Shown: in pieces, positions 9,176 to 14,900 of the stretch
Position numbering within the stretch: the first letter of the stretch is position 1
Layout of the letters: each line of letters opens with the position of its first letter
Origin: a virus
Strand: one strand, 5' to 3'
IMG/VR virus record: IMGVR_UViG_3300023035_000005
Coordinates: 92,708 to 156,707 of that record
Length of the DNA: 64,000 nt
The notes under the pieces: model-generated
The model's database searches: none
What the model was told of the DNA's origin: nothing
The model's input: only the letters and a program-made list of their open reading frames with translations
Made by a program: the position numbers and the translations under genes

Positions 9176-10505
9176 TTACTTCTTTTTAGTGAATAAAATC
9201 TCTTCTACTCTTTTTTTTAAGTAACTATCTTGTTCATTAAAAATTCTTTTAACTACTTGTAAATCTGAATTTACTACTTGCTTTACTTTAGGGTCTCTAT
9301 AAGCAACAGTTAGTCTTATATTTTCATGTACTTCTTTTTCAGCTAAATTAAGTTCTTTATTAAGTGAGTTTCTAAAAGCATTAGTTAGAGTAAAAAATTC
9401 TTTTAAACTAGCGTCAACACTACGACTTTCACTTAATCTTTCTACCTTAGAAAAATAATCGTTTTGTATTTCAGTTCTTTTTATTTCCATTTCTTCTAAT
9501 TTTAATTTGACCTCAATAGGTAAATAAGTTTTATTTAGATCTATTCAAGTAGCTCGTCCACCATAAGACTTATTAAGGAAACTAGAATGAGTTTGAAGTA
9601 AGCCCAAAATCGCCCTTTGAACCTCAGGTTTATCTTCATAATAAAGATTAGCTTCACCTGCTTTTTTAAGCTTATCTGCTATACTAATATTTAGAGCTGC
9701 ATATTCCTCCATAAATTCATTCATTTGTTTAATATAAGTTATAGTTGAAACATCCTCTGGGACCTGGACCTGGACCTGTATATTTGAGCTTGTACTACTT
9801 TGCCCTGAATGTCCGCTAGCTTGGCCTCCGCTTCCCATACCTTCACCTGTCATACTAAGATTAGCAGGAATAATTGCTTTAACGTTACTGGGTAAAGAAT
9901 CGGTAGGTCCAACTAAAGGTATACCTCATAGACTCTTGAAATCTCCTTTTAATTCAGATAATAAATAAGATATAGCCTCTTTAAAACCTAAACGAGCGAA
10001 AGGTAAATGTAGACTTAAAATTAAAGAAGGTCAAGAAACTAGATTTTCAATCAGGTTAAAGTCAAATAAATAGTTAACACCTACTTTGAGAGTATAGGTA
10101 TATAAACCTATTAAAATTAAGGTAAATATATTAACACAATTCATCTTATTTTTTATTCTTATAGATAAATAGGCTCATAATTTACTTTGTAAAGGTAAAC
10201 TTACAAAAGCGTGAGGCTTAGGTGGGCTACTTAACGCTCATTCTAAGGAAGGGTAACTTCTATTTAATAAGGCTTGTAATGTATCAGTATAATATTGAGG
10301 AGTCATTCAAGGATATCTACTTGCAGATTTTCCTTCTACTAATTGTGCATATACAATGTATAAGAATAATCAAGCAGCTATAACACTAACTATAGATCCA
10401 AAACTACTTATCAAATTTCATCCCGCAAAAGCGTCAGGATAGTCACTAATTCTTCTAGGCATTCCTTGTAAACCTAAGAAATGTTGAGGGAAGAAAGTAA
10501 GATTA
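9176..10505 (-). CDS. cox1: cox1 terminal exon copy B with a 336-aa read-through extension
   Basis: [26 protein letters not shown]...[10 protein letters not shown], then open in code 4 to TAA at 9176. Confidence 0.85.
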
Positions 10506-10800
10506 CAAATAGTGTGGACTATATCTTAACCACTTAACAAGATCAATTTCCGCCTTCGGACAGAAGGATTAAAGGAAATATAGATATTTATTAAATAATT
10601 TCCTTCGTGTAGTCTCTGAGGATCCTACTTATAACGTGGCTCATTACTTTGGTTTCCTGCTGATTGTTCAAAATTATACATTTTTACTAGGATTAAATAA
10701 AACTCTAGTAGTATAATTATCAGAAGTTCCCAGCATATAGAAGGATTGGTAGGGGCTAACTTTATTTCTGTTTAGTGCTTCGCCACAAATTGTATAATTC
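10506..10800 (-). mobile_element. duplicated group I intron core with guide sequence, preceding cox1 exon copy B
   Basis: TATATGCTGG..AATCAGCAGG..TCAGAGACTA..AAGATATAGTCC..TTTG; paralog of 11955-12300. Confidence 0.8.
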
Positions 10801-10989
10801 AATCTTCTTCTATAAGAGCTACTCTTTCATCGTTTGCTCCTACGAAGTCAGGCATAAAAAAAAGCTACTTTTTTTATGCTGCCTTTAAAGAATTTGTTTG
10901 TTTTTTTTTGTTTTTTTTATTAATAGTAGAAAAATTTAACTGTTTACTTGTTGTTTTACAAAACAATAATTAAAAGAGTCGGGTAGTGC

Positions 10990-11300
10990 TGGCTGACTTC
11001 GTAGCACTGACTAAGTATGGACTGACTTCGTAGGAGCCGAAAATAAATATATTTTCTTCCGAAGGACTACGTAGTCAGGACTCCTCCTTGGCCTGCCACT
11101 GCCTCCTACGAAGTCAGTCCTTCCGTAGGAGGAAGGAGGAGGCAGTCCTTCCGTAGGAGGAAGGACTGCCATACTTCGTTAGGAGAAGTGGGCAAGCGCA
11201 GCAGGCTCCAGCCTCCTACGAAGTCAGGACTGGCTAATAAAAAATATATTTTTTTATAAGCCCTTCGTAGGAGGAGTAGTCAGGCAGCTACTTTTTTTTA
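10990..11300. repeat. GC-rich element cluster
   Basis: CCTACGAAGTCAG, CCATACTTCGTTAGG and GTCCTTCCGTAGGAGG units. Confidence 0.8.
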
Positions 11301-11335
11301 TTTTATTTCATGAGCCCGCCTTCGGACGGCGCGCC

Positions 11336-11954
11336 CTAACATACATATGTAGCACATATATAACAACATCTCCCGCGTATAACTCAAATCTCTCTACCAG
11401 CTTCCAGGCAAGTAGGACATCTTTTTCCTGGTAGTGTACCTGAATAATATATCTCACTATCTGGATTATTAAGTAACTCACTGCCTGGATTATTAAGTAA
11501 CTCACTACCTAAATTATTAAGTAACTCAATATCTAAATTATTAAGTAACTCGGTACCTAAACCACCAATAATAAATGTTATTATTATTATTAATAATAAT
11601 AATAATAATAAAATAAAAATAAATTTAAGATTAGATTGTAAAGGTAAACTTACAAAAGCGTGAGGCTTAGGTGGGCTACTTAACGCTCATTCTAAGGAAG
11701 GGTAACTTCTATTTAATAAGGCTTGTAATGTATCAGTATAATATTGAGGAGTCATTCAAGGATATCTACTTGCAGATTTTCCTTCTACTAATTGTGCATA
11801 TACAATGTATAAGAATAATCAAGCAGCTATAACACTAACTATAGATCCAAAACTACTTATCAAATTTCATCCCGCAAAAGCGTCAGGATAGTCACTAATT
11901 CTTCTAGGCATTCCTTGTAAACCTAAGAAATGTTGAGGGAAGAAAGTAAGATTA
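11336..11954 (-). CDS. cox1: cox1 terminal exon copy A with a 99-aa extension
   Basis: [11 protein letters not shown]...SLPLQ, then open to TAG at 11336. Confidence 0.88.
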
Positions 11955-14900
11955 CAAATAGTGTGGACTATATCTTAACCACTTAACAAGATCAATTTCC
12001 TCCTTTCGTGGCGCTGACGCTTTACACCGAGGACTAGCCCTGTGCTAGGCTCCTGCGGAGCGAAGCTCGGCAGAAGAATTAAAGGAAATATAGATATTTA
12101 TTAAATAATTTCCTTCGTGTAGTCTCTGAGGATCCTACTTATAACGTGGCTGGTTATTTTGGTTTCCTGCTGATTGTCTAAATATACTTAAGATTTTTAC
12201 TTATTTAATAAGTACTTAAGCCTTATGTGATTTTCCAGCATATAGAAGGATTGGAAGAGGCTAACTATACTATTTCTGTTTAGATTGAGATTGTATAATT
12301 CAATCCTCTCCAGTGCTACGAAGTCAGCCAGAGTTACTCATTCCTTAGTATTTATAATTTTTTTATAAAACTTCATCTTACTTTAAATTGTTGTTTAGCT
12401 GCATTAACAGAAGGGAAAATTAACTCTATATCTGTTTTAGTAAAACAGAAAACAGAATTACCTCCATGTTGCATTGATAATTTACCTTTTAATCCTTTGC
12501 CTGTATGATTATTAGTTAAATAATAAATTTTTGGTGTAGCGAAGCTATGCCTGCCATACTTAGTTAGGAGAAGTGGGCCGTAGCGAAGCTAGCCACCACT
12601 GCGTGCGTGCGTGCGTGCGTGCGTGCGTGCGTGCGTGCGTGCGAAGCCGCCGCCGCCGCCGCCGCCGCCGCCGCAGCACTGCTGCTGCGAAGTCCTAATA
12701 AAAAAAAGACATTTTTTTTTATAAGCAGTCGCCCGAATATTATATACGTAAAGGGGTACGCGCAACCCAGAAGATTTTTAGCGCTCCTCCTGACTTCTCC
12801 TCCTTCCTGCCTCCTACGGCAGGAGGACTGCCATACTTCGTTAGGCTACGAAGTCAGTCCTCCTGCCTGCCTCCTGCCGTAGGAGGCAGGAGTCCTGACT
12901 ACGTAGGCAGCAGGAAGGAGGAGAAGGACCTGTTTCAGATGAAGTAACATTACCTAATTTAGGATGGTTTTCTTTATTTAATCTTGGTTTTAATTCAATT
13001 ATAGTATCAAGACTATGTTTAGAGCGGATCCTTCCTGCCTCCTACGGCAGGAGGACTGCCATACTTCGTTAGGAGGATGGAGCCCCAAATAAATTACCTG
13101 CAACATTTAAAACATTATGTTTAGGTTTATATTTATCCAACCATTTTTGTTCTAAATTAAGACAAACTTTAGAATCATTTTTACAAAATTCAAAAATACC
13201 TAAAGAAAATTTATCTAAACCGTATTTTTTCATTGCTCTTATTATTACTATTTTGGAAAGTTTATCTGAATTAGTATAATAATAATAACTAACCATTATT
13301 TTAGTTAAATTAAGACTACTACCAATATAAAATTCCTTAGTTATATTATTTATAAGTACATAAACACCCGCTTTTTTTCTTAACTCTTTATATATATTCT
13401 TTTTTTCTTTTAAAAAATTCAAAAAAAAAATCGCAAACTCATTAGATCCAGGCTCCGTGTTGAAAGGTTCACCTTTATTAGAGGATTTACTATACAATCT
13501 ATTACTTATTTCAGAAATACTTCCCTTTTTTTTAACCCCTATAAATAAAATTCAAAATTGAACTTTAGATAATAACATATTGTAATTTAAACCTAAAACT
13601 TTAGGAATCCAGTAGTATCACCCACTAAACATTGCAAATACAGCTCCCATACTTAAAACATAGTGGAAATGAGCTACCACATAGTATGTATCATGGAAAG
13701 CAATATCTAACGATGCATTGGCAAGAACAACACCACTTACGAACCAAAAGTTTCTTAATCATTTAATCTTTCGTATCTAAATATATAACCTTTATAAACG
13801 CCATTCACTTTAGCATAATTTTTGATTGTACTATGACTTATACCTAAAGCTCTTTGGGCTTCCATTACTCCATCATATTTAGCAACAAAATTCTTATTCA
13901 TATCATATACAAACACTGCTTTCCTAATCTGACTGTTATTATTTATATTTAAGATTAATTTATCAGATTCTTTAGAATTTCAGTCAGTTATTAAGGGTGT
14001 ATCTTCTATATTATAAGGTATATTAGTAAAATATCACTCCCCTCTAAATAGAATTCCTTCTTTTATAACATTAACTATTGTAGGATGATTAGATTTAATC
14101 AATTTAGCCAAAGTTCCTACGGAAGGAAAGATAATTAATAACTCTTTAAAAGAATTGTATATATAAACAGGATAAGCAGACTTTGCTTCAATGATTCTTA
14201 TTTTACTTTCCATAGAATGACTTTTATTATAAAATGGGTTATTTACACCTGTCAAAGCTCTAGCTATTAAAGCTTTAGTTTCGTCAGTATGAACTCTATT
14301 TCTAGCCAATTGGGATAATAATGCTTTAGTTTCCTTTGTATGTGTATAACCCAATGAAGAATAACCTTGTTTTAACACATTATAGTACGGCAATACATGT
14401 GTTATATAATAAGTTTCTCTAAGGGTTAAATTTTTTAAGTCTACATACTCTAATATTAATACTTTAAAGTTAGATGGATTATATTTTAATAAAGCTTTAA
14501 CAATAGGCATATTAATATTTTGTTTACTTTTTAAAAAAGTAGTATTAAGATAATTTCTCATTCTAGAGGCTAAATTAATAGAACTTCCTACATAAGAATG
14601 ACCATTATTTTTATTAATTAAACAATAAATACCTGATTTGTCTTTTTGTTCTTTTAAAATATTAACTCTATTTTCTTTAAAGTTATCGTATACAGTTAAA
14701 GGAACTAAATTATCAGTATTATCCTCTTTTTCTATTGGAGCTGACAAATTAAAAGTAGAATAAGTACGAATATTAAATATAAGATAAAAATTCAATAAAG
14801 GATTATAATTAGAAAGAGCCGAGCCATTAAATGATCATTTTTGGTTTCACGGACTATATCTTCCCTTAATAATATTAAGGGGACTACGTTTAGTCTCTGA

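Follow-up and report, generated by a model that had tools for sequence, protein, structure and literature searches.

Why would a mitochondrial gene carry its last exon twice, with each copy running on into a different tail? The question is raised by the 3′ end of cox1 in a 64,000-nt stretch of DNA, called the window here in its entirety (positions 92,708 to 156,707 of IMG/VR virus record IMGVR_UViG_3300023035_000005). The window, part of a contig of 216,117 bp, is rich in AT (GC about 0.26–0.39), its genes need TGA to be read as Trp, nearly all of its long open reading frames (ORFs) lie on the minus strand, and its gene content is cox1 with many group I introns, followed by nad1. This is a large, intron-rich fungal mitochondrial genome. 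A repeat search of the window found a direct repeat, with a spacing of 1449 nt, at the cox1 3′ end. The upstream copy (A) continues in frame into a tail of 99 aa, and the downstream copy (B) into an ORF of 336 aa. The explanation that we favor, with a probability of roughly 0.55, is that the duplication is the footprint of an insertion at the cox1 3′ end, copy B being the displaced native end and copy A the working end. The locus is made up of the following parts.

13535–13541, minus strand: end of the upstream cox1 exon (exon 16), ..UAGGGGU, the single 5′ splice site open to both ribozyme cores
11955–13534, minus strand: intron A, group I, 1580 nt, terminal G at 11955, with an ORF in frame from exon 16
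12355–13534, minus strand: eroded GIY-YIG homing-endonuclease gene in three same-frame pieces (Pfam and frame map)
11944–12306, minus strand: ribozyme core A (Rfam RF00028)
11636–11954, minus strand: terminal cox1 exon copy A, 319 nt, to ..LPLQ (alignment)
11336–11635, minus strand: tail A, 99 aa, in frame, stop codon at 11338–11336
10861–11335, minus strand: spacer separating the copies, largely GC-rich palindromic clusters (repeat search and sequence reading)
10495–10798, minus strand: ribozyme core B, terminal G at 10506 (Rfam RF00028)
10187–10505, minus strand: terminal cox1 exon copy B, identical to A (alignment)
9176–10186, minus strand: 336-aa ORF (ORF336), in frame after exon B, stop codon at 9178–9176

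How exact is the duplication? The initial annotation of this DNA, made from its letters without database searches, had the 319-nt last exon of cox1 occurring twice, at 11954–11636 and 10505–10187, 1449 bp apart, and had neither copy stopping after ..LPLQS before its 99-aa or 336-aa tail. Alignment and a position-by-position count bear out the first point, with 0 differences, and the translations agree with the second. The identity extends over 365 nt (12000–11636 versus 10551–10187), which comprise the final 46 nt of the intron and the 319-nt terminal exon, through the CAA codon of ..LPLQ. After that codon, copy A reads TCT AAT.. (99 codons) and copy B reads AGT AAA.. (336 codons). At the upstream homology border, both copies carry a CTGACTTCGTAG motif.

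Which of the two ends is native? Related mitogenomes suggest an answer. In five of them (L001, L003, L014, L005 and L011), cox1 is intron-less and single-copy at its 3′ end, with a stop a few codons past LPLQS. A homologue of ORF336 follows immediately in the +1 frame, and then comes nad1. The order in the window (copy B, ORF, tRNA, nad1) parallels the cox1, ORF, nad1 of these relatives.

8959–9033, minus strand: tRNA-Leu(UAA) (ARAGORN; Rfam tRNA, 53.1 bits; clean cloverleaf)

This tRNA sits between ORF336 and nad1 and is a likely processing point for a transcript that would hold both copies. The wider order seen in the relatives, cob-cox1-nad1-nad4-atp6, is typical of Sordariomycetes. The codons at the junctions follow the type of end. 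Every cox1 end that precedes the ORF reads CAA-AG[T/C], including CAA-AGT-AAA at copy B of the window, and a decayed remnant in the relative L002 reads CAT-AGC. Both cox1 ends that precede the Cys-rich ORF described below (the Cys-ORF), namely copy A of the window and the real end in L002, read CAA-TCT-AAT. Because relatives have the ORF directly after a single cox1, and because the junction codons agree, copy B with ORF336 would be the ancestral arrangement.

What kind of gene is ORF336? It has hydrophobic helices in its N-terminal part, a Ser/Gly linker and a helical C-terminal part, and together with part of exon B it makes up a 428-aa ORF from the ATG at 10462 (MPRR). Its homologues are 64–83% identical, and six lineages carry an intact member of the family (dS at most 0.45; dN/dS 0.33–0.72). 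Judged by these values, ORF336 is a conserved, lineage-specific and moderately constrained resident mitochondrial gene, not a passenger. The initial annotation saw in the two copies a way to express passenger ORFs as Cox1 fusions; that the tails are unrelated passengers dependent on such fusion is not supported, since ORF336 is a conserved gene directly after a normal cox1 in relatives. ORF336 falls in no Pfam family, and a protein atlas search with its homologue P0005 gave no usable match. Membership of the PD-(D/E)XK nucleases was considered, with PDDEXK_3 matches that recurred but stayed sub-threshold (E of 0.003–0.03), and was dropped on seeing the AlphaFold model of the family, which is all-helical and of low confidence (pLDDT 52.7). 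In the single-copy relatives L001, L003, L005 and L011, the conserved N-terminal part of the ORF often lacks an ATG and overlaps the cox1 stop in +1, and indels at these cox1-ORF junctions are all multiples of three (the window counterpart is 10147–10186). In these relatives, translation of the ORF may be linked to the termination of cox1, or may begin at a codon other than ATG. A programmed +1 frameshift joining cox1 to the ORF in these relatives was discarded, as no conserved slippery site was found at the junctions.

Two further relatives indicate which end does the work. In L002, the real cox1 end stops after SNI and is followed by a Cys stretch and then by a decayed cox1 remnant (GLPLHSK) that opens the big ORF, the local counterpart of ORF336. 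In L009, a cox1 copy that is truncated (from ..SSFG) and fused to the big ORF comes straight after the Cys-ORF. No intron core precedes the displaced cox1 copy in either. With the displaced copy cut short or decayed and lacking a core, the A-type end must be the one at work in L009 and L002. The ORF starts differ, with MPRR at ATG 10462 in the window, MYLSSFG in L009 and MKMNKK in L002. The spacer between cox1 end and ORF falls into two classes: in frame at 79 (window), 82 (L010), 85 (L002) and 88 nt (L009), a class of displaced or, in L010, possibly displaced copies, and in the +1 frame at 77, 80 and 86 nt in three single-copy lineages. Because the indels within each class are multiples of three, the in-frame exon-ORF fusion looks selected.

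The lineage of L010 and P0013 bears on the age of copy B. Here an intron 3′ end precedes the complete terminal exon, which shares its frame with an intact ORF; compared with the window, the exon part differs at 4 of 92 residues and the ORF part is ~78% identical. The gene list of the 8.8-kb P0013 contig fits a single-copy and a duplicated layout alike. A duplicated layout would mean that an intact copy B has lasted across species, and a single-copy layout that Cox1 and the ORF are naturally fused. In L010, the Ser/Gly linker of the big ORF is interrupted by an in-frame stop (L010:700-760) at a position where P0013, from the same cluster, has Glu. The big ORF is therefore split or polymorphic in this lineage.

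What was inserted? Tail A is composed of an L/I-rich hydrophobic helix, for which microsatellites code, four 24-nt repeats (ELLNN..., 11450–11569), a Cys-rich domain (CxxC-x13-CxxC, about 11339–11445) and a stop. The consensus of the domain, PG(K/R)RCPxC..G..VWV..G..CPxC.T.V, lies at the extreme C-terminus. Tail A and its relatives match no Pfam family, zinc-ribbon matches being sub-threshold only, and Pfam detected no endonuclease signature in the Cys domain of tail A or in its relatives. Word-based searches with the Cys-ORF returned nothing beyond the same species. A profile built from three copies of the Cys domain retrieved at least 225 proteins at an E value of 1e-3 or better. Entries of this family include L017:572-1480 and L018:4001-4213, and its members include small stand-alone proteins. 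One of these is encoded on a 496-kb fungal scaffold with a GC of 0.47, by a gene with a spliceosomal-type intron; given the size and GC of the scaffold and the type of intron, that gene is apparently nuclear. In other fungi, two cytochrome b C-termini continue without a stop into a hydrophobic helix, a linker and this Cys domain. The domain may be a membrane-anchored mini-domain in the intermembrane space.

The divergence of this element is out of step with that of its surroundings. Its 109-nt core is 70–75% identical in all pairs among the window, L009 and L002. Between the window and L009, the Cys element is 70.6% identical, while the flanking exon and ORF of the same pair are 91–93% identical. 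The element is missing from L003 and L011, though both are closer to the window than L002 is. Because its divergence mismatches that of its host and it is absent in closer relatives, comparison of the sequences favors separate acquisition, or replacement, over simple descent. Transfer of exon A together with this element is unsupported, as the exon follows the species order. The tail-A ORF is also open in a second sample, where P0011 differs by 1 aa in 191.

How might the present arrangement have arisen? A cassette of hydrophobic helix, linker and small zinc-ribbon-like Cys-rich domain would have been joined in frame to the cox1 end, and the native end, comprising the terminal exon, the 3′ half of the intron before it and the gene behind it, would have moved 1.45 kb downstream. 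Recombination at dispersed GC clusters is a plausible route because the homology border falls at a dispersed GC-cluster motif. Copy A, which adjoins the intron without a break and is transcribed before B, would give Cox1 with a 99-aa tail. Copy B would have been kept identical over 365 nt by gene conversion, unless the event is young, and would have come to extend the downstream gene in frame at its 5′ side, the extended gene being translatable from ATG 10462 without splicing. The displaced ORF would thus have taken the exon remnant as a leader. Core B may act at some level, and the anatomy could be explained without its activity.

The identity of the two exons might be read as a sign that both are in use. 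However, the identity tract is bounded by the GC-cluster insertion on one side and by the loss of homology on the other, two heterology borders such as a conversion tract would have. Because the tract includes 46 nt of intron and ends at heterology borders, exon identity is not evidence for use of both copies. From the extent of the tract, gene conversion or a young event would seem to explain the identity best. Simple unequal crossing-over between flanking repeats was rejected, as it would give both copies the same tail.

Could copy B nevertheless be spliced? The initial annotation held that each copy lies behind its own group I core, terminal G and guide, that the cores differ in sequence, and that both guides pair with UAGGGGU (13535) and with UAAU, guide B pairing better. 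Each of these points stands. The cores score 60.5 bits (A) and 51.2 bits (B) against RF00028, above the Rfam gathering score of 50 bits, and both span the full model (1–253). In both, the P, Q, R and S elements are intact (TATGCTGG, AATCAGCAGG, TCAGAGACTACA and AAGATATAGTCC), followed by ..TTTG/TAATCTT, with the terminal G directly before the 3′ exon at 11955 (A) and 10506 (B). The two cores fold into the same P3-P4-P5-P6-P9 skeleton (z = −3.0 for the fold of core A). Guide A, read from the sequence, is GTTAGCCTCT (12265–12256) and guide B is GTTAGCCCCTA (10760–10750). The computed P1 duplex with the end of exon 16 has 6 bp and −7.2 kcal/mol for A, and 7 bp and −11.6 kcal/mol for B. In silico, P10 places GUUA opposite exon UAAU in both copies, the same 4-nt partner at identical exons. 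The 7-bp target of guide B has two sites in 39 kb of cox1 sense strand, UAGGGGU occurs once in 9000–14000, and no second 5′ splice site for core B was found. By these sequence criteria, both copies in the window look spliceable. In L009 and L002, where the displaced copy has no core, that copy cannot be spliced.

The differences between the cores carry a history of their own. A position count indicates that copies A and B differ beyond the identical tract by a few clustered events, not by scattered substitutions. The P9 loop of core A has a 61-nt GC-cluster insertion (about 12009–12069) that is absent from core B, with few adjacent changes; the P6 loop has three changes inside 6 nt; the guides differ by two changes; and the hairpin upstream of the guide is replaced. 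The P3-P5 block differs as well, and in core B it resembles a neighboring intron.

14884–15025, minus strand: segment of a neighboring cox1 intron that matches the P3-P5 block of core B (BLAST and three-way alignment)

By BLAST, the P3-P5 block of core B (10603–10743) is 84.7% identical to this segment over 144 nt, and core A is 71.6% identical to it; in a three-way alignment, the block is nearly identical to the neighboring intron centrally. Core B is a chimera, produced by recombination between different group I introns with the P4 pairing partners preserved; the shared block is direct evidence that such recombination reaches into the conserved elements of the core. Because it matches the P3-P5 block of core B, segment 14884–15025 is a partner in the recombination or conversion event.

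Several observations weigh against copy B being a displaced and superseded end. Core B is undecayed, passing the RF00028 threshold with P, Q, R and S kept and the better guide, which is unexpected for a long-abandoned relic. It is copy A that is worn: its guide is weaker, its P9 holds a GC cluster, its endonuclease gene is eroded and no stop codon follows its exon. The two exons do not differ at all, whereas in Allomyces and Glomus the foreign and native C-termini have diverged (PMC3630166). Pfam finds no endonuclease domain in the Cys-ORF to account for mobility. L010/P0013 also keeps the full exon and the intron 3′ end fused in frame to the ORF. It is possible, if doubtful, that both ribozymes use the exon-16 site, so that some mRNAs would end in exon A and the Cys tail and others in exon B and ORF336, the latter encoding a Cox1 fusion. 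In a sequential form, core B would reopen the ligated exon16-exonA junction and swap in exon B, since P1 needs the 5′ exon only. Two cores that both pass RF00028 and share the P3-P9 skeleton are what this requires, as are the stronger P1 of B (7 bp, −11.6 kcal/mol) than of A (6 bp, −7.2 kcal/mol), the shared P10 partner and UAGGGGU as the sole nearby target for B. The genes lie on one strand with the next tRNA past ORF336, so one transcript probably holds both cores; exon B is held in frame with ORF336 across indels; and tandem group I introns that share recognition sequences are known to skip an intervening exon (PMC10136302). However, relatives have the ORF without an intron before it (L009 and L002) or in a separate frame after the cox1 stop (L001, L003 and L011), and because they express it without splicing, fusion by splicing is not required. 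Moreover, core A is made first and is nearer to the splice site by 1.5 kb, a further 336 aa with their own hydrophobic helices would be a heavy load on Cox1, and conversion accounts for the identity of the exons. That two cores sharing one 5′ splice site, by competition or by reopening of the junction, would go on to yield two cox1 terminal exons with their tails is in our estimation unlikely. The initial proposal of mutually exclusive Cox1 C-termini is partly supported: its sequence prerequisites (cores and guides) hold, but the view of the tails as passengers dependent on fusion is not supported, nor is exon identity evidence of use.

The switch might instead lie in the DNA. The genome could mainly hold one copy (intron A, exon, ORF336), the 1449-nt unit forming a separate circle or a tandem array of varying extent through recombination between the 365-nt repeats, and the tail behind the exon would then change with the DNA. 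L015 and L016, metagenome contigs of other samples, are 99.9–100% identical to the region. L015 corresponds to window 12000–10424, one 1449-nt period plus a 128-nt overlap, and begins at the first base of the identical tract; L016 reads core B, exon, tail A, spacer, a circular permutation and a path absent from the assembled window. Fungal mitochondria commonly recombine across repeats of this size, and short reads cannot phase a perfect repeat of 365 nt. Tandem duplication also yields loop-shaped short-read contigs, however, so L015 and L016 do not discriminate. In addition, the 216-kb contig has both copies in line, a pop-out circle requires the tandem form as its source, and L009 and L002 have the Cys-ORF integrated between cox1 end and ORF. 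A DNA-level switch is improbable on this evidence. Both contigs contain the junction of tail A with core B, and that junction is real in other samples; the order of repeats is left unphased by them. Finally, copy B could be the working end, with copy A and its tail inside a 3-kb intron and Cox1 always fused to ORF336, perhaps to be cleaved later. The better guide of B and the greater wear of A would fit, as would the full exon of L010/P0013 after an intron end and in frame with an intact ORF, a lineage that could be single-copy. L002, however, has a proper stop on its A-type end and a decayed B, and L009 has a truncated B. Furthermore, the tail-A ORF is open and nearly unchanged in a second sample (P0011), and the Cys domain is conserved at the protein level. 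Hence, very little weight can be given to copy B as the sole working end.

Is a displaced cox1 end without precedent? In Allomyces macrogynus atp6 and in atp6, atp9, cox2 and nad3 of Glomus sp., mobile ORFs have formed gene hybrids with a replacement C-terminus; some of these hybrids are in phase without a stop, and in Glomus cox2 a group I intron is reported directly before the inserted C-terminus (PMC3630166). The window shares with these hybrids an inserted ORF between two 3′-end copies (exon A, tail A, spacer, core B, exon B), an upstream copy in phase with the inserted ORF and with no stop, as in Glomus atp6, a downstream copy that is native by its junction and by synteny in L001, L003, L005 and L011, and a patchy distribution of the element among relatives. 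The differences are in content. The insert in the window is a hydrophobic helix with a small Cys-rich domain, not a LAGLIDADG or GIY-YIG endonuclease; the nearby GIY-YIG gene belongs to intron A, not to tail A, and is eroded. The copies in Allomyces and Glomus are 64–81% alike, whereas those of the window are identical and only the junction codons differ, giving no foreign C-terminus to recognize. Because A and B are identical over 319 nt, the origin of either exon cannot be read from the exon itself. Unlike in these hybrids, the duplicate in the window includes a ribozyme core, a guide and a 3′ splice site, and the native copy is fused to a conserved gene.

Other parallels concern the setting and the ribozymes. 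Endoconidiophora resinifera, with a mitogenome of over 220 kb, has partial C-terminal duplications of cob and atp6 (PMC6279837). Its large mitogenome, the same type of gene order, the displaced C-terminal segments downstream and the degenerate endonuclease ORFs nearby all resemble the window; its segments, however, are gene fragments in spacers, with no core, guide or in-frame downstream gene reported with them (PMC6279837). Exon skipping by group I introns has been described for orf142 of phage Twort, for Coxiella 23S rRNA and for engineered tandem Tetrahymena introns (PMC10136302). As in these cases, the window has two similar ribozymes whose cross-reacting recognition elements could bring together the first 5′ splice site and a distal 3′ one; the known cases remove an internal exon of 23–34 nt, whereas the window would present a choice of terminal exon, in a mitochondrion. 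Among the relatives, the habit of C-terminal duplication in L014 extends to cob and nad1. In relatives (L014:3-2116 and L014:9965-12498; L002:2054-3950), a second cob 3′ end lies behind an inserted ORF of 420 aa, and a second nad1 5′ end, ahead of the true nad1, is joined to an unknown ORF. Duplication of gene ends next to lineage-specific ORFs seems routine in this clade.

What has worn down intron A? Its GIY-YIG gene survives as three pieces in one frame (13534–13072, 13041–12844 and 12588–12355), the first of which matches Pfam GIY-YIG with E = 3.3e-8. The pieces are split by stop-bearing GC clusters and by a (TGCG)n/(GGC)n microsatellite tract. In that tract, (TGCG)n of ~13 units stands beside a (GGC)n run, at 12592–12690 on the minus strand, within the broken gene. 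A repeat search finds the GC-rich palindromic cluster families D2, D3, D6, D8 and D10. Microsatellites and GC clusters are the main agents of decay at intron A, and probably of recombination too.

What does the locus mean for our understanding of these genomes? Duplicated 3′ ends of mitochondrial genes beside inserted ORFs, with the displaced copy a bare fragment, are known. Here, the displaced copy appears to keep everything needed for group I splicing, together with a better guide and an in-frame fusion to a conserved gene. The 3′ end of cox1 is not callable from sequence alone at this locus, which is a warning for annotation. The locus also offers a clean natural test of whether group I ribozymes produce alternative terminal exons. 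If they do, the locus would be a natural organellar example of alternative last exons driven by ribozymes, giving Cox1 with a membrane-anchored Cys-rich domain or a fusion of Cox1 with the downstream protein, and the displaced downstream gene would regain lost translation. The comparative data bear on how a resident gene that depends on cox1 for its expression copes with displacement. They also reveal a small Cys-rich domain, with apparently nuclear relatives, that in fungal mitochondria is attached in frame to the C-termini of two different subunits of the respiratory chain.

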